DNA from: Lachnospiraceae bacterium | GTDB taxonomy: Bacteria; Bacillota; Clostridia; Lachnospirales; Lachnospiraceae | DNA length: 10,137 nucleotides | Direction of reading: 5' to 3' | Assembly: GCA_030527685.1 (NCBI GenBank) | Contig: JAUNAG010000095.1 | Coordinates: 1 to 10,137 of the forward strand | Part shown: positions 293 to 10,137 of the stretch, piece by piece | How positions within the stretch are numbered: the first letter of the stretch is position 1 | Layout: each line of letters starts with the position of its first letter | Notes under the pieces: model-generated | Databases searched by the model: none | What the model was told of the DNA's origin: nothing | The model's input: only the letters and a program-made list of their open reading frames with translations | Position numbers and translations under genes: made by a program

Positions 293-1300
293 TCACTTCA
301 GACAGCTCCTCAGCTGCGGTATATTCACCAGTGATTCCAGAATACCGTGATTGGATTCTTCCAGATCCAGAGAATCGCCGAAGGCATCCATCAGACTCTG
401 CCGCAGTTCAGAACCTTCTTCAGTGTAAAGATATTGATAGAGTTTCTCGCATACACGGACGATGTTGCGCGTGTACTGCCGGAACATCGGGCTGAGCTCA
501 GAGGCAAGCATACCGAGTCTGGATGCATAGACAGAAGTAGTCGGTTTCAGGAAGGACTCACTGTATTTATGCCACAGGCGTGCATTGGCCGGATTGGAGG
601 CAGTTTCCTGCAGCTCCTGAATCATGGAGTCAATAAAGGCAGCATCTGTTTCCCCGGACAGAGAAGTAATCAGCTGATACCGCTCGGACTGCATGGAAAA
701 CAGCTCGTCAATCTGCTCGGAGCTGAGAGACTGGAAGAACAGCTGCAGCTTCCTGTAAGCTTCATCCGGTTCCTGCAGAGTCAGTCTGTTGATCTTCATC
801 CAGATGAATTCCTGATACTCACTGAACTTTTCGTGAGGAAGGAAAGCAGAAAACAGATAGCGGTTGAGCGCGCCGGAGCTGTAGACGGCAGAAGCATCCT
901 CACCCGTATTCGGTGAAGGCGGTTCCGGAAACTGTGCTTCGAGACAGAGCGTGTAAAGATCAGAAAAATCGGGGTAGAGCGGAAGCTCGTCAATGATGTG
1001 ATTCATGCCGATCAGCGTCTGCGAAATCCGGATCTGCTCCTGACGCAGCCGACGGATGTGCTGGTTTAGATAATGCGTTGCCGTGATCGGCGAGTGAAGC
1101 ATAGAGGAGATACTCGCTACGGACATCCCTGCGTCACGCATCTTTTTGACAAATGTCAGCCGCTCGCAGTCCGCTTCTGTGAATTCATAATATCCGTTTG
1201 CAGCATCAACAGACGGAGAGAGAAGCCCCTCCTGTATATAGAAATGGATATTTCTTTTTGTTAAGCCTGTCTTTTCACTGACCTGTCTGAGTTTCATCAT
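293..1300 (-). CDS. MerR-family transcriptional regulator with a large (~260 aa) C-terminal putative effector-binding domain
   Basis: Long ORF of 335 aa. The N-terminus, MKLRQVSEKTGLTKRNIHFYIQEGLL, matches the MerR helix-turn-helix signature (xxIgEvAkxxGvsxRTLRYYexxGLL pattern). There is a GAAGGGA ribosome-binding site 7–8 nt upstream of ATGATG, shown by the reverse complement of 1301–1312. It is transcribed divergently from the large oxidoreductase gene. The + strand ORFs 250..495 and 347..916 that overlap it are antisense artefacts. Confidence 0.85.
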   Translation of the reverse strand: MMKLRQVSEKTGLTKRNIHFYIQEGLLSPSVDAANGYYEFTEADCERLTFVKKMRDAGMSVASISSMLHSPITATHYLNQHIRRLRQEQIRISQTLIGMNHIIDELPLYPDFSDLYTLCLEAQFPEPPSPNTGEDASAVYSSGALNRYLFSAFLPHEKFSEYQEFIWMKINRLTLQEPDEAYRKLQLFFQSLSSEQIDELFSMQSERYQLITSLSGETDAAFIDSMIQELQETASNPANARLWHKYSESFLKPTTSVYASRLGMLASELSPMFRQYTRNIVRVCEKLYQYLYTEEGSELRQSLMDAFGDSLDLEESNHGILESLVNIPQLRSCLK

Positions 1301-1609: not shown

Positions 1610-1656
1610 GGGGAGGAAGCAAAGAACTTTAATACAGAATGACGAGGACAAGTGAT

Positions 1657-4600
1657 ATGTTTGAACATCTGTTTACCCCTATTAAGATTCGAGGAATGGA
1701 ATTAAGAAACCGCGGCATCATGCCTGCTATGGGAACCAAGTTTTCCGGCAACACAAGCGATGTGACGCCGACACTGATCGAGTACCACAGACTTCGTGCA
1801 AAGGGCGGCAGCGGCCTGAACATCGTAGAGGTCAGCAGCGTGCATACACCGAGTGCACCGAGACATTTCCTGTCCTTAAGCGAAGACCGCTATATTCCGG
1901 GAATGAAGAAGCTGACAGACGCAATCCATGCGGAAGGCGGAAAGGCAGGCGTCCAGCTCTGGCAGGGAAGTCTTGCAGTCGGCCTTGATCAGACAGCACA
2001 GATCCTGATGGCAAGTGAGATGCCGGTAGCTCCGGGCGTCACACTCCCGGGCATGACAGTAGAAGAGATTGAGGAGATCGTCAGATGCTACGGCCAGGCT
2101 GCCGAAAGAGCAGTGAAGGCAGGTTTTGACTGCCTCGAATTCCACTGTGCACACAATTATCTGCCGCATTCCTTCCTCTCGGGCGGCATCAACCACAGAA
2201 CCGATGAATACGGCGGTTCCCTTGAGAACAGAGCAAAGTTCCCGCTGGCATGTATCCGCGAAATTCGTGCTCATATCCCGGAGGATATGCCGCTGTTCAT
2301 GCGAATTGATGCACATGATGATTATCTGGAGAACGGCCTGACAATTGAGGAAGTCATCACCTTCTGCAAGTGGGCAGGCGAAGCAGGTGTGGACGTTCTG
2401 GACGTCTCCCGCGGCAATGTCATCACTCCGGCCAATAAATTCGAGGTTCCGCCGATCGATCTTCCGAGAGGCTTTAATATTCCAAATGCAGCCCGCATCC
2501 GCCGCGAGACCGGCATGCTCACCATCGGTGTCGGACGCATCAACACACCGGAGCTTGCAGAGAAATATCTCGCAGAGGATCAGGTGGACATGGTCGTTCT
2601 CGGACGCGCACAGTACGTTGATCCGGAATTCATGAATAAGGCAAGAGAAGGCCGCACAGAGGATATCGATCACTGTGTAGGCTGTGACCAGGGCTGCCTG
2701 GATGCATTTGCAGATACAAACTGCCCGCAGGTTACCTGCCTGCGTAATCCCGCACTCGGAAGAGAACTGGAATGCAGGATCACAAAGACAGAAAAGCCGG
2801 AAACAGTTCTGATTGCAGGCGGCGGTATTGCGGGACTTGAAGCGGCAATCGTTCTGCAGCAGAGAGGCCACCGCGCTGTGATCTGCGAAGCAGGTGACAA
2901 GCTGGGCGGCCAGTTCCTGACAGCAGGTGAGGCACCGCGCAAGCAGGAGATGAAGGACGAAGTCATCGCGATGGCAAAGAAGGCAGAGCGTCTCGGTGCA
3001 GAAATCCGTCTTCACACCAAAGTTGACGCAGAGCTGATCCGTGAGATGAAGCCGCATACCGTGATGAACGCCATCGGTGCGGTTCCGATCCGTCCGCGTA
3101 TTCCGGGCATTGAGCAGAGCTTTGTTGTCAGCTCCCATGATGTACTGAACGGCCTGACAGAGGTCTCCGGCAAGGTTGTCGTCATCGGCGGCGGTATGGT
3201 TGGCATGGAAGTTGCCGAGTATCTCGCTGAGAGAGGCTGCAGCGTCACAGACCTGGAGATGATGAAGGAATACTGCGCAGATCTGGGCATGGCACGTAAG
3301 TTCTGTGTACAGGAGAGCATCGCAGCTGCAGGAATCGAGTCTGTAACAGAAGTTAAGGTGACCGGTATTGAGCCGGGCAAGGTCGTCGGCGTCAAGGGCG
3401 GAGAGCAGGTTGAGTATCCGTGTGATTATGCAGTTGTAGCCATCGGCTCTGTATCCCGTGACGGCAGAGAGCTGGAGGCAGCTGCAAGAGAAGTCGGTGC
3501 AGGCTACTTCGTCATCGGTGATGCAGGACGCGCAAGACGCGCAATGAATGCAACCAGAGAAGCATTCGACGCAGCATTGACATTTGACGATCCGGCAGTT
3601 CATGCAGATGTGACAAAGCCGCAGAAGGTCGTAGCCGTGACCGGTGCCACAGGTACCATGGGTCTGGAGACACTGAAGCAGCTGCTTGGCAGAAAGAACA
3701 GATTTAAAGTCAGAGCATTTGCAAGAGAATCTGATATCAACAGACAGAAGATGAAGCAGATGGCTGCTCCGAATCTGGAAGTCGTCTGGGGCGATCTGGC
3801 CAATTACGATGATATCAGGCGACTGGTGGACGGCGCCGATTATGTACTTCACATCGGTGCGATGGTTTCACCGGCAGCTGACAAATATCCGGAGAAGACA
3901 CTGTACACGAACATCGGCTCAACCCTGAACATCATCAAGGCAATCAAGGAGCAGCCGGATCCGGACAAGGTGCATTTCGTCTATGTCGGAACAGTGGCAG
4001 AGACGGGCGCAAGAACCTATCCGATTCACTGGGGACGTGTCGGTGATCCGATCAATCCGTCGATTTTCGATTACTATGCACTTTCCAAGGTGTATTCAGA
4101 GCTTGCTGTTTTTGAATCCGGCCTGAAGCACTGGGCATCGATCAGACAGACAGGACAGCATCCGAGTGCGGAAGGAGCAGGCGAGGAGCCGATCATCTTC
4201 CACCAGCCGGCAAACAATGTTCTCGAGTGGAGTACATCCATTGAATCCGGTATCTGCATGGCCAATGTCTGCGAGGAATGGGTTCCGGAATCCTTCTGGA
4301 GAAAAGCTTACAACCTCAGCAGCGGTCCGGCTTACAGACTGACCTGCTGGGAACTGACAGATCTGATGATGGAGCCCTTCGGCATCAGTATCAAGGATCT
4401 CTACGATGCAGACGCACTGCCGTTCTACAATTTCCACGGCCATTACTTCTCCGACAGCCAGAAGCTGGATGACATCCTGCATTTCCGCTGCATTCCGGGC
4501 GAAGCTTACTGGGAAGGCGTTCGCGACGAGATGAGACGCATGAAGGCCAATCCGATGATTGCGGCTATGTTCCCGAGCGCAGAGCAGATGAAGGAACATA

Positions 4601-5127
4601 ACAAGGAGATCGGCATGAAGAAGGGCGGTCTGTACTATGCTCTGGAGAACGGAGACGAGGACTGGATCAAGGCATTCTACGGATCTGCCGAGAAGCGTGC
4701 GGAAATCAAGAGCTGGGATGATGTGGAGCTTTTCCATCCGAGCGAAGAAGAGACTTATCTTGACCACGGCTATGACGAAGAGAAGGGAATCGAAAATCTG
4801 ACACTCGAGGATCTGCAGAAGGCAGCGGCATTCCGCGGCGGCAGATGCCTGATCTCCGCAGTGCCGGCTGATATCTACACCCCGATTCTGTGGGAGTGCG
4901 CCGACAGCCATCAGTTTGCAATGTCTATCAATGCAGTCCTGCAGGGCGGCCACTGGTGCCCGGAGTGCCTGGCACATGAATGGCATTACGGTGACATCGC
5001 AAAGAAGAATCCGTTCTATGCACAGGTCTGGACACCGCTTCACGGTGATGAAGACAACTACGTGATTCCGATGGAATACAGCGGCTTTGATGTGGCAAAC
5101 GAGCTGAAGAACAAGCTTGGTTTATAA
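1657..5127 (+). CDS. Multidomain oxidoreductase: FadH/BaiCD-like NADH:flavin enoate reductase (FMN TIM barrel + 4Fe-4S + two FAD/NAD(P) Rossmann domains) fused to an extended-SDR (NAD-dependent epimerase/3beta-HSD-like) domain and a C-terminal domain of unknown function
   Basis: The ORF track gives 1639..5127. I prefer the ATG at 1657 because GAGGA at 1643–1647 sits 8 nt upstream; the 1639 ATG has its GGAGG 22 nt away. Residues 7–340 carry Old Yellow Enzyme family motifs (HCAHNYLPHSFLSGGINHRTDEYGGSLENRAKFP). Residues 346–367 read CVGCDQGCLD...C...C, matching the FadH-type 4Fe-4S motif CIGCNQAC. Residues 388–425 are VLIAGGGIAGLEAAIVLQQRGHRAVICEAGDKLGGQ, an FAD-binding GxGxxG fold. Residues 512–533 are VVVIGGGMVGMEVAEYLAERG, a second dinucleotide fold. 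Residues 663–820 are VVAVTGATGTMG...YALSK, an extended-SDR Rossmann with a catalytic YxxxK. Residues about 900–1162 have no motif I recognise. The frame is continuous throughout. Confidence 0.85.
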   Translation: MFEHLFTPIKIRGMELRNRGIMPAMGTKFSGNTSDVTPTLIEYHRLRAKGGSGLNIVEVSSVHTPSAPRHFLSLSEDRYIPGMKKLTDAIHAEGGKAGVQLWQGSLAVGLDQTAQILMASEMPVAPGVTLPGMTVEEIEEIVRCYGQAAERAVKAGFDCLEFHCAHNYLPHSFLSGGINHRTDEYGGSLENRAKFPLACIREIRAHIPEDMPLFMRIDAHDDYLENGLTIEEVITFCKWAGEAGVDVLDVSRGNVITPANKFEVPPIDLPRGFNIPNAARIRRETGMLTIGVGRINTPELAEKYLAEDQVDMVVLGRAQYVDPEFMNKAREGRTEDIDHCVGCDQGCLDAFADTNCPQVTCLRNPALGRELECRITKTEKPETVLIAGGGIAGLEAAIVLQQRGHRAVICEAGDKLGGQFLTAGEAPRKQEMKDEVIAMAKKAERLGAEIRLHTKVDAELIREMKPHTVMNAIGAVPIRPRIPGIEQSFVVSSHDVLNGLTEVSGKVVVIGGGMVGMEVAEYLAERGCSVTDLEMMKEYCADLGMARKFCVQESIAAAGIESVTEVKVTGIEPGKVVGVKGGEQVEYPCDYAVVAIGSVSRDGRELEAAAREVGAGYFVIGDAGRARRAMNATREAFDAALTFDDPAVHADVTKPQKVVAVTGATGTMGLETLKQLLGRKNRFKVRAFARESDINRQKMKQMAAPNLEVVWGDLANYDDIRRLVDGADYVLHIGAMVSPAADKYPEKTLYTNIGSTLNIIKAIKEQPDPDKVHFVYVGTVAETGARTYPIHWGRVGDPINPSIFDYYALSKVYSELAVFESGLKHWASIRQTGQHPSAEGAGEEPIIFHQPANNVLEWSTSIESGICMANVCEEWVPESFWRKAYNLSSGPAYRLTCWELTDLMMEPFGISIKDLYDADALPFYNFHGHYFSDSQKLDDILHFRCIPGEAYWEGVRDEMRRMKANPMIAAMFPSAEQMKEHNKEIGMKKGGLYYALENGDEDWIKAFYGSAEKRAEIKSWDDVELFHPSEEETYLDHGYDEEKGIENLTLEDLQKAAAFRGGRCLISAVPADIYTPILWECADSHQFAMSINAVLQGGHWCPECLAHEWHYGDIAKKNPFYAQVWTPLHGDEDNYVIPMEYSGFDVANELKNKLGL

Positions 5128-5144: not shown

Positions 5145-5888
5145 ATGTTAAAAGATAAGGTTGCAGTCGTAACAGGCGGTACACGCGGAATCGGTTACGC
5201 GATCGTGAAGAAGTATCTGGAAAACGGCGCAAAAGTTGTCCTCTTTGGTTCCAGACCGGAGACAGTCGAGAAGGCAGTACAGTCTCTGAAGGCTGAGAAT
5301 GCAGAGTGGGAAGTCAGTGGTGCAAGCCCGGACCTCGGCAATGCGAAAGCAGTTGCCGAAGAGATCGGAAAGGTAAAGGAGAAGTACGGCAGACTGGATA
5401 TTCTGGTCAATAACGCCGGCGTATCCGACAGCACACTGCTTGCAGATTATCAGGACGGCCAGTTCGAGAAGGTCATGGAACTGAACCTCCTCGGCGTCTA
5501 CCACACCATTCAGCCGGCAGCTTCTGTCATGAAGGAGCAGGGTGGTGGATGCATTATCAACATCAGCTCCATGGTAAGCCGTTTCGGCCAGCCGGGCGGT
5601 GTTGCTTATCCGACCAGCAAGTTCGCAGTCAACGGTCTGACCATCTCCCTTGCACGTGAGCTCGGCCCGGATCAGATCCGCGTCAATGCAGTCGCACCGG
5701 GTGTCACAAAGACCGATATGGTTGCCGCACTTCCGGATGAGGTCATCCAGCCGCTGCTGAACACGATTCCGCTTCGCAGAATCGGCGAGCCGGAGGATAT
5801 TGCAAATGCATGCCTCTTCCTTGCAAGTGATCTGGCAAGCTATGTCTCGGGAGCAGTGCTTTCAGTAGACGGAGCAACACTGGTATAA
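5145..5888 (+). CDS. Classical short-chain dehydrogenase/reductase (FabG/hydroxysteroid dehydrogenase-like, 247 aa)
   Basis: The N-terminal VAVVTGGTRGIG matches the TGxxxGIG cofactor motif. NNAG, the catalytic Ser in ISSMVS and the YPTSK (YxxxK) motif are all present. GGAGGG at 5131–5136 is a ribosome-binding site 8 nt before the ATG. The gene starts 17 nt after the fusion gene's stop, so the two are co-transcribed. Confidence 0.9.
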   Translation: MLKDKVAVVTGGTRGIGYAIVKKYLENGAKVVLFGSRPETVEKAVQSLKAENAEWEVSGASPDLGNAKAVAEEIGKVKEKYGRLDILVNNAGVSDSTLLADYQDGQFEKVMELNLLGVYHTIQPAASVMKEQGGGCIINISSMVSRFGQPGGVAYPTSKFAVNGLTISLARELGPDQIRVNAVAPGVTKTDMVAALPDEVIQPLLNTIPLRRIGEPEDIANACLFLASDLASYVSGAVLSVDGATLV

Positions 5889-5917
5889 AATATTAAAGAA
5901 CAGAAGATATAAGTGGA

Positions 5918-5952
5918 AAGCCGTGTGTCCGGGAGGATACACGGCTTTTTTT
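5918..5952 (+). terminator. Rho-independent terminator downstream of the SDR gene
   Basis: Seen directly: the stem is AAGCCGTGTGTCC / GGATACACGGCTT, 13 bp with one G·U pair, around a GGGA loop. A T7 run follows at 5946–5952. Confidence 0.6.
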
Positions 5953-6026
5953 GACTGCATCTCATTTTACAGAGCATATCATCTTATGCTGAGAGAATGA
6001 TTCAACTGCTGTGAAAGGGGAAAACA

Positions 6027-6629
6027 ATGGGAAATTGCTACGGTTATATACGCGTCAGCTCACATGAACAGAATCCGGATCGACAGCTTGCGGCGATGCA
6101 CGAGCTGCACATTCCGGAGAAAAACATTTATCTGGATAAGGTTTCGGGAAAGGACTTTGACCGGGAGGGCTATAAGAAGCTTTTCAGGAAACTGAAAAAA
6201 GGAGACACACTTTATATCAAGAGTATCGACCGTCTTGGGAGAAACTACAGAGAAATCATCGAACAGTGGCAGCTCCTGACGCGCAAAAAGCAGGTTTACA
6301 TGGTCGTACTGGATATGTCCCTGCTTGATACGCGAAGAGGCGGGGACTTGCTGGATACATTTATCAGTGAACTCGTACTGCAGATTTTATCCTATGTTGC
6401 GGAAAATGAGCGCACACAGATCAGGCAGCGTCAGGAGGAGGGAATCGCGGCTGCAAAAGCAAAAGGAGTCAGATTCGGCAGGCCGCCCAGAGAGACGGGA
6501 GCGGAATTCGCCCATGCATACGCCAGATGGAAGAAAGGGGAAATATCACAGAATGTGGAGGCAAGACAGTGTGGAATGGCGGCATCAACTTTTCGTTATA
6601 AGATCAGGAAAATGCAATTGGAAGAATAA
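6027..6629 (+). CDS. Small serine recombinase (resolvase/invertase family, catalytic domain + C-terminal HTH)
   Basis: The N-terminus YGYIRVSSHEQNPDRQ carries the catalytic-serine signature Y-x-R-V-S-x-x-x-Q of the Tn3/gamma-delta resolvase and Hin/Gin family. Further family motifs are DKVSGK..DREGY, DRLGRN, ILSYVAENER and AKAKGVRFGRP. The C-terminal ~45 aa form a helix-turn-helix. AAAGGGG at 6014–6020 is a ribosome-binding site 6 nt before the ATG. Confidence 0.9.
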   Translation: MGNCYGYIRVSSHEQNPDRQLAAMHELHIPEKNIYLDKVSGKDFDREGYKKLFRKLKKGDTLYIKSIDRLGRNYREIIEQWQLLTRKKQVYMVVLDMSLLDTRRGGDLLDTFISELVLQILSYVAENERTQIRQRQEEGIAAAKAKGVRFGRPPRETGAEFAHAYARWKKGEISQNVEARQCGMAASTFRYKIRKMQLEE

Positions 6630-6632
6630 CAG

Positions 6633-6662
6633 CCGGGCAGAAAGGTATACTTTTCTGCCCGG
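6633..6662. repeat. Site S1: 30-bp near-perfect palindrome CCGGGCAGAAAgGTATACtTTTCTGCCCGG immediately 3' of the recombinase stop (candidate recombinase binding/crossover site; may double as a terminator hairpin)
   Basis: Seen directly: 12-bp arms flank the self-complementary hexamer GTATAC (6645–6650). The only arm mismatch pairs as G·U in RNA. A moderately U-rich stretch (gtgattctttc) follows. Confidence 0.6.
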
Positions 6663-6774
6663 TGATTCTTTCAGATTATATACAACAATATAGAACAATT
6701 TTACACCAGAAACATACGTGAAACAAGCATTCCGATCGGATCGACCAGACTGATTACGCCGGATTGTAAGTCCA

Positions 6775-6798
6775 CAGAAACGTATACTTTTCTGCCCG
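6775..6798. repeat. Site S2: second copy CAGAAAcGTATACtTTTCTGCCCG of the S1 core, 137 bp downstream (centre to centre), about 8 bp before the ORF-track start of the next gene
   Basis: Seen directly: 23 of 24 positions match the S1 core. It has the same GTATAC centre, at 6782–6787. The right arm TTTTCTGCCCG is identical to S1. Only CAGAAA of the left arm is conserved. Because both copies are near-palindromic, their relative orientation is ambiguous; the direct alignment is slightly better than the inverted one. Confidence 0.6.
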
Positions 6799-6805
6799 AT
6801 GCAAA

Positions 6806-8680
6806 ATGAAATCAATTCGGGGGAATATGGATATGGCTTCTTTTGTCATGGAGTGTCCGAGCTGCGGCAGGTATGTCGAGGCGAAAACAGGCTTTTTTGC
6901 AAGAAAGAAAATTGACTGTACCTGTGGTTATACCATCAATGTTCGCACAGATAAGCTGACCGGCAGAGTGTGTCCGCACTGCGGCAACAACGTGGTTTTT
7001 GATCAGAGCAAGGCGGATCAGGCGAAGTGCCCGGTCTGCAATGAGCCGATCAACACAATGGAAGAACAGAGCAAGGTGGTGGAATTCTCCTGCGGTCAGT
7101 GCGGTGTACGTCTTCGCGCAGCAAAGGGAACAGATACCTATACCTGCCCGGTCTGTGACCATGTGAACAAAGTGGCTGAAAGAGCTGAGCTGGAAGAAGC
7201 AAAAAAGTCCGGTCTGGCAAGCATCATTCGATACGAGGGGGATAATGCGACGCTTGTCTGGAAGCATCCGCTCGAGGATTTCAACATGGGCTCTCAGCTG
7301 ATTGTCCATGAGTCACAGGAGGCGATCTTCTTCCGCGACGGACAGGCATTGGATCTTTTCGGAGCCGGACGATACACACTGGAGACACAGCAGCTGCCAC
7401 TTCTTGAGAAGATTTATCAGCTTCCGACAGACAGTGAGGCGACATTTCACTCGGAGGTTTACTTCATTAACCGTGCCACGCAGATGGGAATCAAGTGGGG
7501 AACGGACAGCAAGGTTCGCCTGTTTGATCCGATCTCCGGACTTCATGTAGAGCTTGGCGCAAGCGGTGAATTTAATATCCGTGTAGAAAATGCAAGGAAG
7601 CTCCTTCTGCGGATTGTCGGCACGACGGGAGGCCTCAGCAGTGAATCTCTCGTGGGAAATCTGAATTCCAAGGGAATCTTCAGAAGTCTGATCATGACCC
7701 AGGTCAAGAGCTTCCTGGCACAGACGATCAAGGAAAATCAGATCAGCGTTCTTGAGATCGATGAACACCTGATGACACTTTCGGCATCTCTTCGGGAGAA
7801 GATCAATCAGAGCCTTGAGGACTATGGTCTTATGATGCCGGAGTTCTTCGTATCCCGTGTCGTGACACCGGATGATGATCCGAACTTCCGAAGAATGAAG
7901 GAGCAGTATGCAAGACAGTATCTCTCTGTCCGGGAGGAGGAGATCCGGAAACGTGAGGCAGAAGCAGCGGCAGAGCGAAAGGCTGTGGAGGCACAGACCG
8001 ATGCCCGCATGCAGATCATTCATGCACAGGGAAGTGCAGAGGCCATGAAGATCCAAAAGCAGGCCGAGGCAGAAGCTTATCGGATGCAGGCAGCTGCAGA
8101 GGCAGCGGAAATGCAGATGAAGGGCTATTCCTATCAGCAGGAGACATCGCGCATGGTTGGCATGGAGGCGATGAAGAACGGACTGACCGGAGAAGGAGGC
8201 AGCGGCATCATCGGAGACCTCGCAGGACTCGGAGCCTCCCTTGGCGTGATGGGCGGTGTCGCCGGAATGGCCAAGGATATGCTCAATCCGGTTGTACAGG
8301 GAGTCGGAGGTGCATTTGCCGCAGGCGCACAGAACGGAGCGTTCGGAGACAGTCAGATGGGACAGTCCTCCCTCGGAAACGGAGTGCCCGGCGCAGCAAC
8401 TCCCGCACACAGTGCACCGGGGGACAGCTGGAACTGCAGCTGCGGTGCGGCAGGAATTACGAGCAAGTTCTGCCCCGAGTGCGGTGCGAAACGTCCCGAA
8501 CCAAAGCTGCCTGCGACCTGGAACTGTCCGAATTGCGGCGCAGCAGGAATTACAAGTAAGTTCTGTCCCGAATGCGGAACCAGAAAGCCGGAGAAGACGA
8601 CATGGTGCTGTCCGAACTGCGGTGCAAAGGAAATTACTAGCCGCTTCTGCCCCGAGTGCGGAACAGCAAAACCGGAATAA
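6806..8680 (+). CDS. Zinc-ribbon / SPFH (Band-7, PF13421-like, YdjI-type) / coiled-coil / triple C-terminal zinc-ribbon protein
   Basis: The true start is probably 6827 or 6833, because GGGGGAA at 6819–6825 is a ribosome-binding site. The N-terminus has three CxxC...CxxC zinc ribbons (CPSCG..CTCG, CPHCG..CPVC, CGQCG..CPVC). Residues about 140–360 match the Band_7_1/SPFH family that is often misannotated as virion core protein, with LVWKHPLEDFNMGSQLIVHESQEAIFFRDGQ...GAGRYTLETQQLPLL...EVYFINRA...IKWGT. An Ala/Glu-rich coiled coil and a Gly-rich linker follow. The C-terminus has three tandem W(N/C)CPNCGA(A/K)(G/E)ITS(K/R)FCPECG repeats. Confidence 0.8.
   Translation: MKSIRGNMDMASFVMECPSCGRYVEAKTGFFARKKIDCTCGYTINVRTDKLTGRVCPHCGNNVVFDQSKADQAKCPVCNEPINTMEEQSKVVEFSCGQCGVRLRAAKGTDTYTCPVCDHVNKVAERAELEEAKKSGLASIIRYEGDNATLVWKHPLEDFNMGSQLIVHESQEAIFFRDGQALDLFGAGRYTLETQQLPLLEKIYQLPTDSEATFHSEVYFINRATQMGIKWGTDSKVRLFDPISGLHVELGASGEFNIRVENARKLLLRIVGTTGGLSSESLVGNLNSKGIFRSLIMTQVKSFLAQTIKENQISVLEIDEHLMTLSASLREKINQSLEDYGLMMPEFFVSRVVTPDDDPNFRRMKEQYARQYLSVREEEIRKREAEAAAERKAVEAQTDARMQIIHAQGSAEAMKIQKQAEAEAYRMQAAAEAAEMQMKGYSYQQETSRMVGMEAMKNGLTGEGGSGIIGDLAGLGASLGVMGGVAGMAKDMLNPVVQGVGGAFAAGAQNGAFGDSQMGQSSLGNGVPGAATPAHSAPGDSWNCSCGAAGITSKFCPECGAKRPEPKLPATWNCPNCGAAGITSKFCPECGTRKPEKTTWCCPNCGAKEITSRFCPECGTAKPE
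8429..8677 (+). repeat. Three tandem in-frame coding repeats (periods 90 and 84 bp) encoding zinc-ribbon modules
   Basis: Seen directly: the units start at 8429, 8519 and 8603 (tggaactgcagctgcggtgcggcaggaattac..., tggaactgtccgaattgcggcgcagcaggaattac..., tggtgctgtccgaactgcggtgcaaaggaaattac...). They share about 75–80% nucleotide identity. All are in frame within CDS 6806..8680. They are not CRISPR: there are no unique spacers. Confidence 0.8.
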
Positions 8681-8716
8681 ATCACAACACGTCGATTGGG
8701 TTAAGGAGAAAGTGAT

Positions 8717-9421
8717 ATGACAGCAAATCAGAAGAGAGCCGCATTGACAGGCGGCATCGTGATGGCCTGCTTCACATTGATCACATTAATCGCCCCACTT
8801 CAGAAAGGAAGCGTCTACATCCTGTCATTCCTGTTCACATGGATCGCGGCATGTGTGGCAGGCTATGGAATCTACAGAGGTTTACTGAACGGCACATCTG
8901 TAAAAAGTAAATATTACGGCTTTCCGATCGCCAGGATCGGTGGCATCTATTTCGTCATTCAGCTTATCCTAAGCATCCTCCTTATGATTACGGCTACATT
9001 TATCGAGATGCCGATGTGGATCGCGGCGATTCTCTACATCGCCCTGCTGGCAGCAACAGGCATCGGCATGATCGGAGCTGTGTCAGTGCGAGAAGAAGTG
9101 GAACGACAGGACAGCGAAGTAAAGAGAAAGACCTCTGTTATCCGGGAACTGCAGAGCATCTCTGCGGGATTTGCAGGATTGACAGATAATCCGGAAGTGA
9201 AAAAGAAATTGCAGAAACTCACAGATGAGCTGCGATTCAGCGATCCGGTGAGCTCTGAGGAAACAGCAGGGATTGAGAATAAGCTGAGAGAAAAGATCGA
9301 GGAGATCCGAACACTTCTGACTACAGGAGAAGCTGACCGGGAAGCAGTGACAGTACTTTGCGAAGAAACAACACGACTGATTGGAGAACGGAATCGAATC
9401 TGCAAGGATGGGAAGAGATAA
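8717..9421 (+). CDS. Membrane protein: four N-terminal transmembrane helices followed by a ~110-aa helical/coiled-coil cytoplasmic domain (hypothetical; possible partner of the SPFH protein)
   Basis: AAGGAG at 8703–8708 is a ribosome-binding site 8 nt before the ATG. Four hydrophobic stretches lie at residues about 10–28, 33–53, 74–96 and 100–122. The C-terminal part is charged and helical (EVKKKLQKLTDELRF...KIEEIRTLL). The gene is 36 nt downstream of the SPFH gene with no terminator between them. Confidence 0.75.
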   Translation: MTANQKRAALTGGIVMACFTLITLIAPLQKGSVYILSFLFTWIAACVAGYGIYRGLLNGTSVKSKYYGFPIARIGGIYFVIQLILSILLMITATFIEMPMWIAAILYIALLAATGIGMIGAVSVREEVERQDSEVKRKTSVIRELQSISAGFAGLTDNPEVKKKLQKLTDELRFSDPVSSEETAGIENKLREKIEEIRTLLTTGEADREAVTVLCEETTRLIGERNRICKDGKR

Positions 9422-9434
9422 GAGGTGAGTCATA

Positions 9435-10001
9435 TTGGCGGAAGCAGATAAAATATGCTTTTTATTTGGAGCAGGAGCAGAAGTAGGATTTGACATCGCC
9501 GGAGGTGGAGATTTTGCAAAGGACGTGCTCGGTATATCGGATGAAGGAAAGGCGATGACCGATGCAATAGCGGAGTATTACAAAAAGGGAAGAAGCTGTT
9601 TAGTTGGAACGGAAACAGATGGATGGTATCCGGTATATACAAGGCAGGGGTGGAAGAGTAATGAGATCAAGAAAGCTGCTGTAATGACAAAGTTTCTTTT
9701 CGAGAAATCAGATGAAATTACGGATTCAAAAAAGAATTTTGAAACAATTATTAAGCGCGAAGTAAAGAATGCTAAGGATAGCGAAATAAAGAAGTATTTA
9801 AGTTATAAGGGGTTGATAGATGCAAATTTTTATACGATGATCGCACCAAAATATCTCGGGCCGACTAAGTTCTGGCAGGTAGTCAATACTTTGAGGAATT
9901 TAATAAAAGATATGGCAGTCATGTTCATATACTGGACTGGGCATTGCACCTTGATGAGTCCACTCCCCATATCCATGAAAGGCATGTCTTTGATGCGGTG
10001 A
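9435..10001 (+). CDS. Hypothetical protein with a TTG start; the N-terminus has a weak SIR2-like motif (ICFLFGAGAEVGF). The 3' ~45 codons are probably spurious read-through into a mob remnant in a different frame
   Basis: A strong ribosome-binding site, AAGAGGTGA (9420–9428), sits 6 nt before TTG at 9435. It is only 13 nt after the membrane-protein stop, so the three genes form an operon. GC content drops from about 55% to roughly 35–45% from here on. FLFGAGA resembles the SIR2_2 N-terminal motif (vlFlGAGxS), and GTETDG loosely resembles TTNYD. From about 9869 a different reading frame carries clear Mob_Pre sequence, so the real C-terminus is uncertain. Confidence 0.4.
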   Translation: MAEADKICFLFGAGAEVGFDIAGGGDFAKDVLGISDEGKAMTDAIAEYYKKGRSCLVGTETDGWYPVYTRQGWKSNEIKKAAVMTKFLFEKSDEITDSKKNFETIIKREVKNAKDSEIKKYLSYKGLIDANFYTMIAPKYLGPTKFWQVVNTLRNLIKDMAVMFIYWTGHCTLMSPLPISMKGMSLMR

Positions 10002-10137
10002 ACCAGTACGGAGAGTTATGCCCCCAACAGGACAAAGCTCTGGAAGAATTAGGAATGGAGTTGCCTGATCCGACCAAGAAAAAAGGAAAATATAATAATC
10101 GCAAGATGACCTTCGATGCAGAGTGCAGAAAGCTCTT
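9869..10137 (+). pseudogene. mob: 5'-truncated Mob_Pre (MobV/pMV158 MobM-type) plasmid mobilisation relaxase, running off the window end
   Basis: The frame starting at 9869, read after an in-frame TAA at 9866–9868, gives VLAGSQYFEEFNKRYGSHVHILDWALHLDESTPHIHERHVFDAVNQYGELCPQQDKALEELGMELPDPTKKKGKYNNRKMTFDAECRKL. This contains the family-defining motif III HxDE(S/T)TPHxH and the preceding FFE...YG block. The roughly 100 N-terminal residues are absent: there is no HNER motif I and no start codon in frame. The catalytic Tyr/His region is therefore missing from this frame. Confidence 0.6.

Follow-up and report, generated by a model that had tools for sequence, protein, structure and literature searches.

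The stretch of DNA analysed here (the window) is the whole 10,137-bp contig JAUNAG010000095.1 of an incomplete metagenome-assembled genome (MAG) of a Lachnospiraceae bacterium (GCA_030527685.1), and the subject of the analysis is a pair of adjacent genes at positions 6806-9421, which encode an SPFH protein carrying zinc ribbons (ZnR) and a partner with four transmembrane (TM) helices (4TM). Comparison with related loci showed that in Lachnospiraceae, Oscillospiraceae and their relatives an operon, [RHH]-SPFH-4TM-[ZnR-TPR-TIR-TPR-TM-variable ectodomain]n, is built around the pair as its invariant core. Within the known YdjI/SamI class, the SPFH protein of the window represents a new variant in architecture. 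It is put forward tentatively, as a possibility, that the pair is the scaffold of an undescribed and widespread Clostridial signalling or immune system that organises arrays of TIR receptor-like proteins, the window being a client-less member. The SPFH-4TM-transmembrane-TIR operon, the most interesting result of the analysis, was found mainly outside the window; lacking TIR genes, the window copy is less informative than any other member. An original prediction, made from the sequence of the window, had described the pair as a fused YdjG-like and YdjI-like protein with a 4TM partner, forming a compact version of a PspA-associated module on an accessory element, in a context typical of defence or stress islands; its observations were confirmed and its interpretation was supported in part.

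Conservation of the gene neighbourhood was examined in 80 species-level SPFH loci, for which open reading frames (ORFs) were called and neighbours clustered. The 4TM partner family was found in 62 of these loci, at the +1 position in 58 of the 62, always on the same strand and mostly with a gap of -4 to +20 nt, and calls based on hidden Markov models (HMMs) found the partner, encoded by the same strand as the SPFH gene and 3' of it, in 60 of 79 species-level loci. A large TIR family was represented by 77 genes in 58 loci, always on the same strand as the SPFH gene and mostly at the +2 or -1 position, while a protein of ~70 amino acids (aa) belonging to the ribbon-helix-helix (RHH_1/CopG) family (Pfam E=6e-8) was encoded 5' of the SPFH gene in 33 loci; a small resolvase lies at the 5' end of the operon in the nearest relatives of the window. 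Flanks of at least 5 kb were available on either side of the SPFH gene in 37 species-level loci; HMM-based calls identified the partner in 25 of these, with a same-strand TIR-module gene in 24 of the 25. In the reciprocal test, in which metagenome contigs, many of them short, were seeded with the alignment of the TIR protein N-terminus, an SPFH gene was found in 53 of 80 loci and in 12 of the 13 where at least 4 kb were available on both sides, always on the same strand as the TIR gene and with a median gap of 652 nt. The operon was not found in PADLOC or in the literature, and the literature searches made gave no paper linking bacterial TIR and SPFH proteins; neither DUF6273 nor PF13421 was mentioned in the papers listed for these domain families.

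In other genomes the surroundings of the operon are heterogeneous: 85 Pfam families were counted in 88 flanking proteins, no family in more than three, and most of the genes encode transporters, regulators and enzymes, with only occasional transposases. The operon is a self-contained cassette occurring in varied chromosomal contexts and not a classical defence-island fixture. The defence-island context proposed in the original prediction is not supported by these flanks, which are ordinary chromosomal ones. Searches with PADLOC of the TIR, RHH and other neighbouring proteins of the relatives gave no system match, and one of five proteins had only weak domain-level matches. For the window proteins, PADLOC-DB v2 returned a single match of the SPFH protein, to Cas12f (E=0.0024), which is a spurious zinc-ribbon match, and no match of the partner.

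The TIR proteins occur as one to six paralogues per locus, a six-gene array being at L126:2-13807 (related loci are given as L numbers). The family was found across L001 and L003-L167, with examples at L015:4803-7514, L066:11940-14723 and L041:2683-8424. A near-invariant N-terminal zinc ribbon (C5/C8/C23/C26, 'KCKMCGG...CEYCG', with the Cys residues at least 99% conserved) is followed, as judged by Pfam, by a TPR region, a TIR_2 domain (aa ~158-281) and a second TPR region. The TIR_2 domain carries the motifs 'DVFICYKE' and 'WVxNEW'; the Glu of the latter is 96% conserved, the surrounding TIR motifs are 96-100% conserved, and its counterpart in an alignment with the TIR domain of flax L6 is the Glu of 'WCLMEL', the catalytic residue of TIR NADases. 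The C-termini are variable and consist of BspA-type LRR_5, LRR_4, RCC1, DUF6273 or multi-TM regions, or are missing altogether. In most members a single strong TM helix separates the conserved module from the variable part. Lys plus Arg residues beside this helix number 5.45 on the N-terminal side versus 1.89 on the C-terminal side, and 132 of 139 proteins have more of them on the former, which predicts a cytoplasmic TIR module and an extracellular variable domain. The operon of Oribacterium also encodes a 431-aa protein (L001:10887-12182) with the ZnR and TPR N-terminus of the TIR proteins and a long coiled coil but no TIR domain, which may be a TIR-less adaptor or decoy.

Both genes of the pair were confirmed in the window as intact maximal ORFs on the + strand, of 624 aa (6806-8680) and 234 aa (8717-9421), separated by 36 nt. 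The true start of the SPFH protein is probably the ATG at 6827 or 6833 rather than that at 6806. The available gene models begin at 6806 (624 aa), 6827 (Logan, 617 aa) and 6833 (NCBI, 615 aa), and the two later starts are favoured by the sequence GGGGGAA at 6819-6825, resembling a ribosome-binding site (RBS), by the homologues, which begin to align at about residue 10 of the maximal ORF, and by the NCBI and Logan models themselves.

The domain organisation of the SPFH protein, with an SPFH domain between three N-terminal and three C-terminal zinc ribbons, was as originally predicted, and the Pfam families proposed for it (PF13421, PF12773 and PF13240) were all matched. The three N-terminal Cys4 zinc ribbons (6854-7156, + strand; aa 17-40, 56-78 and 96-117) were identified by direct reading of the sequence and show weak matches to DUF1922 (aa 14-52, Pfam) and to the PRK14890 Zn-ribbon. 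The SPFH domain (7277-7876, + strand; aa 158-357) matches Band_7_1 (PF13421; E=1.4e-38, 133.1 bits against a cut-off of 24) and also PF01145 (E=1.5e-5). It is followed by long Ala/Glu-rich helices (7877-8155, + strand; aa ~358-450), seen in the sequence and in an AlphaFold2 (AF2) model as helices 350-398, 404-429 and 434-448 (numbering of the 615-aa protein, ~+9 for the ORF) with per-residue confidence (pLDDT) of 58-84, and by a Gly/Ala-rich low-complexity linker (8156-8425, + strand; aa 451-540, with 24 Gly and 14 Ala in 90 aa), which is disordered in the AF2 model. The three tandem C-terminal zinc ribbons (8435-8659, + strand; aa 544-559, 574-590 and 602-618) repeat the pattern W-x-C-P-x-C-G...F-C-P-E-C-G and match PF12773 (DZR), PF13248 and PF13240, the Pfam DZR/Zn_ribbon matches lying at aa 552-621. 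No TM helix was predicted in the SPFH protein. The full-length AF2 model was poor (pLDDT 56.4, pTM 0.29) because the alignment is shallow and of low diversity, and it was not used for a fold search; a sequence search of PDB with the SPFH protein gave solely zinc-ribbon matches, to PolD DP2.

At least 7999 database proteins are homologous to the SPFH protein. The best 120 of these are ~584-659 aa long, share 66-73% identity with the query over 98-99% of its length and carry no annotation beyond 'SPFH domain-containing protein'. All 24 ribbon cysteines, including the 12 N-terminal ones, are invariant among 28 full-length homologues. Among 139 gathered homologues, the number of N-terminal ribbons is either three or zero in 135, while that of the C-terminal ribbons spans zero to six and the combination of three and three is present in 17. 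Given the at least 7999 homologues, of which the best 120 are all ~620 aa, the architecture of the window protein is not an unusual one.

The partner (8717-9421, + strand) belongs to a new, unannotated family. Four TM helices are predicted in it, at aa 8-26, 31-49, 77-95 and 106-124, followed by a charged helical tail of 110 aa; the four helices agree with the original prediction, whereas the tail, described there as a coiled coil, was modelled as a helical bundle and not a classical coiled coil. The positive-inside rule places the conserved loop and the tail on the cytoplasmic side. The motifs SxxYGxPIARxG, RFSDPVSS and ERNRxCKxxK are kept across the family, and the SPFH protein and the partner of the window retain every family-invariant residue, including these motifs. 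Searches of Pfam and NCBIfam with the partner gave no match, neither an NfeD nor a TPM domain was found in it by Pfam, and a fold search gave no specific match.

The relation of the pair to the pspA-ydjGHI operon of Bacillus subtilis was assessed for YdjI, YdjG and YdjH by their published descriptions, not by direct sequence alignment. YdjI/SamI has a Band_7_1 domain, a stretch of low complexity, a C-terminal zinc ribbon of its own, and no anchor of its own (PMC8581546; bioRxiv 10.64898/2026.02.06.704340). The SPFH protein of the window shares with it a Band_7_1 domain scoring above the gathering threshold, the lack of an anchor, a low-complexity linker with C-terminal ribbons and separately encoded membrane proteins, and differs in having three extra N-terminal ribbons and three C-terminal ribbons where YdjI has one. 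The class proposed by the original prediction, a YdjI/SamI-type SPFH protein with a dedicated membrane partner, is upheld, but the proposed fusion of YdjG and YdjI is not, since SPFH domain, linker and C-terminal ribbon form the normal YdjI/SamI architecture and the C-terminal ribbons are no evidence of a fusion. YdjG combines a pair of zinc ribbons with a YpeB/NTF2-like domain and a TM segment (PMC11237479), while the N-terminus of the SPFH protein consists of its three ribbons only, with no NTF2/PepSY-type Pfam match and no TM helix in the protein. These ribbons have nothing in common with YdjG other than being ribbons. YdjH is a membrane protein with a TPM-phosphatase domain (PMC11237479), and the partner, which has neither a TPM nor an NTF2-like domain, cannot be regarded as its equivalent.

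A search for PspA was performed by jackhmmer against all ORFs of at least 50 aa, using an E. coli PspA sequence validated as PF04012 (E=9e-49), and no homologue was found in the 168 loci (the window and 167 related loci). The absence of pspA from the window had been noted in the original prediction, which had nevertheless called the pair a compact PspA-associated module; the operon differs from pspA-ydjGHI in lacking pspA, ydjG and ydjH, in its unrelated 4TM partner and in the RHH and transmembrane TIR companions of the relatives, and the genes upstream of the SPFH gene are a recombinase (window) or RHH and TIR genes. The likeness to YdjG and YdjH that remains is one of functional analogy, namely that membrane proteins encoded beside the SPFH gene are possible tethers: SamG and SamH recruit the anchorless SamI, which in turn restrains SamGH signalling (PMC8581546; bioRxiv 10.64898/2026.02.06.704340). 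As YdjG does, the TIR proteins and a ZnR-TM protein found beside short SPFH genes, described below, begin with zinc ribbons.

Other known systems were compared in the same manner. As in HflK/C-FtsH, QmcA-YbbJ/NfeD and FloT-YuaF, comparisons drawn from the SamI preprint (bioRxiv 10.64898/2026.02.06.704340), the SPFH gene is translationally linked to a gene for a small multi-TM partner, and assembly of a cage or ring around client membrane proteins would be in keeping with the long helices that follow the SPFH domain. The N-terminal TM segment or hairpin of HflK/C, QmcA and flotillins is, however, missing from the SPFH protein of the window, the partner has no NfeD match of the kind that defines SPFH-NfeD pairs, and the clients here would be TIR proteins and not a protease as in HflK/C-FtsH. 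The neighbours of the pair in the relatives resemble TIR immune proteins (Thoeris ThsB, TIR-fused partners of short Argonautes) in their TIR_2 domain with a catalytic-type Glu, but no listed system has the ZnR-TPR-TIR-TPR-TM-ectodomain architecture or the obligate partnership with SPFH/4TM, and none of these proteins is encoded in the window.

A separate lineage with a short SPFH protein (~425 aa) without N-terminal ribbons is represented by ten Saccharofermentans/Ruminococcaceae loci, which have neither the 4TM partner nor TIR genes (labels L072-L080, L084 and L086; example L074:309-2413). In these, the SPFH gene is preceded by genes for an extracytoplasmic function (ECF) sigma factor, a protein without annotation, a ZnR-Yip1 protein and a protein of 271 aa with a zinc ribbon and four TM helices, and followed by serpins and a PAP2 protein. 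The ZnR and helical N-terminus of the 271-aa protein is homologous to that of the TIR proteins (hhalign 92.9%, E=3.6e-7). Kinship of this protein with the 4TM partner was considered and rejected (hhalign 1.4%). As the two N-termini are homologous and the partner is unrelated, the ZnR-helical module marks different membrane proteins beside Band_7_1 genes, and it is likely, from these alignments, to be an SPFH-docking module and the nearest functional analogue of YdjG.

Invertons of gut bacteria are driven by small serine invertases such as Hin/Gin and Mpi of Bacteroides. The gene preceding the pair in the window encodes a small serine recombinase of the resolvase/invertase type (6027-6629, + strand; 200 aa), with the catalytic YIRVSS motif, a C-terminal helix-turn-helix and a match to PF00239 (Resolvase; E=9.3e-31), along with matches below threshold to XisF and Mpi invertase of NCBIfam. 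The possible switch noted in the original prediction corresponds to paired dyad-symmetric repeats, of which the left one, CCGGGCAGAAAGGTATACTTTTCTGCCCGG, lies directly past the recombinase stop codon (6629) at 6633-6662 and the right one (..CACAGAAACGTATACTTTTCTGCCCGA) at 6771-6799, ~30 nt 5' of the likely SPFH start codon. Their 24-nt arms are 92% complementary and separated by 117 nt, and the AT-rich segment of ~110 nt between the repeats (6663-6770) is a candidate invertible promoter. A serine recombinase of ~200 aa adjoining a ~100-125-nt AT-rich segment that is flanked by 15-30-nt inverted dyad-symmetric repeats 5' of an operon is the anatomy of an inverton. The left repeat also resembles a terminator hairpin and could simply terminate transcription of the recombinase.

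The same recombinase gene lies at the 5' end of the operon in five related loci, where 15-30-nt inverted repeats around an inner segment of ~90-105 nt are again positioned past the recombinase stop codon (L012:6728-6887, L013:426-578, L015:978-1114, L052:418-570 and L121:455-587); the distance between the arms is 91-103 nt in L012, L015 and L121. In L013, L015 and L052 the repeats are truly inverted, since their core is asymmetric (GTCTAC vs GTAGAC). Alignment of the L015 inner segment with those of L013 and L052 succeeds only as the reverse complement, with a score of 33.5 versus 3.0 in the same orientation (71 vs 54 identities), while the flanks are co-linear on both sides (downstream identities 94/117). 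Inversion of the segment among the relatives is thus supported, by comparison, through its two orientations within co-linear flanks. An extended -10-like promoter within it points toward the operon in L015 and toward the recombinase in L013 and L052. The window copy is, by this comparison, probably phase-variable, behind a probable invertible promoter switch. A relaxed scan of its segment gave sigma-70-like hexamers on the minus strand (GTAAAA-18-TATAAT, 9/12; TTGTTT-17-TAAAAT, 8/12), and a stricter consensus scan of 5850-6900 gave none; as the better matches sit on the minus strand, the assembled state is weakly suggestive of OFF. The window and the Logan contig L087 have one and the same orientation and probably represent a single sample. 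Between the inverton and the SPFH gene, the nearest relatives of the window carry a gene for a ~305-aa protein (L013:681-1589, L015:1218-2126, L052:669-1601 and L017:4862-5815) with a weak match to DUF2971 (E=0.0085, below threshold), which is absent from the window.

Downstream of the pair, the window contains two gene fragments. The first, ORF188 (9435-9872, + strand), has a TTG start with the RBS GAGGTG, and its frame stays open, out of register, up to 10001. Over its first 146 aa it resembles the N-terminal ~140 aa of proteins in a family of ~370-400 aa (66 representatives, best 47% identity, by exhaustive HMMER search), a match by which it represents the truncated N-terminal ~40% of a ~375-aa family; a word-indexed homologue search found only ORF188 itself, and Pfam gave no match with the fragment. 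The SIR2-like nature that the original prediction had assigned to it is weakly reflected in the full-length relatives, five of eight of which match AbiH (best E=1.5e-6, below the gathering score) and seven of eight, weakly, the PADLOC SIR2 models (best E=1.5e-5), but all these matches are sub-threshold and the fragment itself has none. The profile of the family had no match among PDB structures. The nearest full-length relative adjoins a standalone TIR_2 gene, a DUF2971 gene and TnpV. A swap of one NADase for another, from TIR to SIR2, at the +2 position was considered and set aside, as ORF188 is truncated and no other SPFH locus has a relative of it.

The second fragment (9866-10137, + strand), the predicted mob remnant, is an internal part of a MobV/Pre-type relaxase that lacks the N-terminus and runs off the end of the contig. 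It covers positions 106-174 of 196 of the Mob_Pre profile (PF01076, E=6.9e-5, just under the gathering cut-off), contains the motif HLDESTPHIH, which on direct reading fits HxDExxPHxH, and has plasmid homologues with 86%, 66% and 43% identity (tblastn). It begins at ~9866 in a frame different from that of ORF188, and the GC content drops to ~40% at this end of the window. Either recombination with a mobilisable element left a scar at the ~9866 junction, or the assembly broke there at a repeat. The separately assembled Logan contig L087, which shows no difference from the window over 4,637 bp and reaches 46 bp further, reproduces the junction, but it probably derives from the same sample and so provides no independent evidence on the junction or on the orientation of the switch. 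The operon is cut short 3' of the 4TM gene by foreign or fragmentary DNA, the contig ending 716 nt past the partner gene, and no TIR or RHH gene or remnant was found in any frame of the six in the window. A megablast search of 5900-10137 against plasmid and phage collections gave no match, and a scan of viral contigs with the SPFH protein found no relatives; as these searches were empty, the accessory element proposed by the original prediction is left with the recombinase, the Mob fragment and the GC drop as its evidence. A link of the pair to conflict or mobile contexts is plausible.

The 5' part of the window is occupied by metabolic genes. These include a gene for a 1162-aa triple-fusion oxidoreductase at 1639-5127, with Old-Yellow-Enzyme FMN, pyridine-nucleotide-disulphide oxidoreductase and NAD-dependent epimerase/NmrA-like domains, adjoined by a divergent MerR-family regulator (293-1300, minus strand) and a short-chain dehydrogenase (5145-5888); its architecture is unusual and probably unrelated to the SPFH finding. 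A GC-rich hairpin (AAAGCCGTGTGTCC/GGATACACGGCTTT) with a T-run at 5917-5948, just past the dehydrogenase gene, is probably a terminator and separates the metabolic genes from the recombinase-SPFH cassette.

By analogy with SamGHI, there is about an even chance that the pair evolved as a membrane anchor and scaffold that regulates TIR receptor clients. In such a mechanism, the 4TM protein would anchor the anchorless SPFH protein at the inner face of the membrane, as SamG and SamH do for SamI, and the SPFH assembly would corral or restrain the transmembrane TIR proteins, its clients, whose diversified ectodomains resemble sensors; a ligand outside the cell or a perturbation of the membrane would then release or cluster the TIR modules and switch on their activity. 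The window copy is best read as an intact but client-less scaffold and anchor core, probably phase-variable and possibly in the OFF phase. Several observations weigh against this account. Scaffolding and restraint rest on the analogy with SamGHI and other SPFH-partner systems, and the poor full-length AF2 model of the SPFH protein carries no information on oligomers. The window has no TIR gene, so that the client model cannot apply there in cis, and L036, the sole exception among the 25 well-flanked loci, carries the SPFH/4TM pair but no TIR gene, evidence that the two genes can occur by themselves. Genes for SPFH forms devoid of zinc ribbons are likewise accompanied by 4TM and ZnR-TIR genes, because of which docking of ribbon to ribbon cannot be the general contact, and the similarity between the N-terminal ribbons of the SPFH protein and the TIR ribbon is weak (hhalign 27%). 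The switch of the window differs from known invertons in being known in one assembled orientation, in its palindromic repeat core, GTATAC, which is readable equally as direct or inverted repeats, and in the weak assignment of a promoter within the inter-repeat segment.

Other explanations account for parts of the same evidence. The pair could be a general scaffold for membrane or surface proteins, involved in the insertion, sorting or stabilisation of large LRR, RCC1 and DUF6273 surface proteins, with the TIR and TPR regions merely structural and no NADase signalling. The BspA-type LRR, RCC1 and DUF6273 ectodomains are typical of Firmicute surface and adhesin proteins, phase variation is classic for surface structures, the chromosomal contexts are ordinary, and SPFH proteins elsewhere act as chaperones of membrane complexes (PMC11237479). 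We consider it unlikely nonetheless, since the conservation of the catalytic-type Glu and the TIR motifs (96-100%) among the paralogues argues for an enzymatic function, and a common cytoplasmic module joined to differing ectodomains looks like diversification of sensors. A conflict function for the pair by itself, in which a mobile defence island would carry it as an effector of anti-phage abortive infection or of membrane disruption, is suggested by the recombinase, the AbiH/SIR2-like and Mob fragments adjoining it and the ~40% GC at the 3' end, and the TIR linkage of the relatives is a hallmark of conflict systems, while phase variation is common for costly or phage-selected functions. This is quite improbable, as neither PADLOC matches nor relatives on viral contigs, plasmids or phages were found, the flanks elsewhere are ordinary, known SPFH proteins are scaffolds and not effectors, and the TIR genes of 24 of the 25 well-flanked loci are the more plausible effectors.

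There is very little probability in the compact fused YdjG and YdjI module of the original prediction, which with its YdjH-like partner would organise a PspA encoded elsewhere under envelope stress. The YdjI/SamI architecture is shared and YdjG also starts with zinc ribbons (PMC8581546; PMC11237479), the position of the short-SPFH lineage behind an ECF sigma factor and a ZnR-TM protein recalls the sigma-W control of pspA-ydjGHI, and pspA could be located elsewhere in the incomplete MAG; set against these are the lack of PspA in all 168 loci with a PF04012-validated query, the lack of TPM in the partner and of an NTF2-like domain and TM helix in the SPFH protein, and companions of the RHH and TIR families. 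Decay of the window cassette into a functionless remnant, its TIR genes having been lost by rearrangement with a mobilisable element, would explain why it lacks the genes that 24 of 25 comparable loci have, why the next two genes are fragments and why the promoter segment appears to point away from the operon. But both ORFs are intact with all invariant residues, including the 24 zinc-ligand Cys and the partner motifs, the TIR genes could lie in the unassembled genome, and the contig stops soon after the partner gene; decay is considered very unlikely. The reading of the pair as the scaffold of a signalling or immune system, tentative as it is, would make that system a bacterial counterpart of the raft/flotillin-organised Toll-like receptors and of the plant SPFH (HIR) organisers of immune receptors.

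SPFH proteins are universal, but to our knowledge few of their bacterial clients are known. Only recently has SamI of B. subtilis been proposed to act as a brake on a membrane sensor (bioRxiv 10.64898/2026.02.06.704340). The present analysis adds to the YdjI/SamI class a large branch of gut and rumen Clostridia, with at least 7999 homologues, that is without PspA and is accompanied by a new 4TM family. Its near-obligate two-way link to transmembrane TIR proteins provides a concrete, testable set of clients of an SPFH scaffold and may exemplify outside-in TIR signalling in bacteria, and the inverton of one sub-lineage, which includes the window, implies ON/OFF heterogeneity at the level of the population. 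If the scaffold-client model fails, the pair remains a well-defined new SPFH-partner family; if it is true, the biology of membrane microdomains would be joined to TIR immunity in abundant commensals of the human gut.

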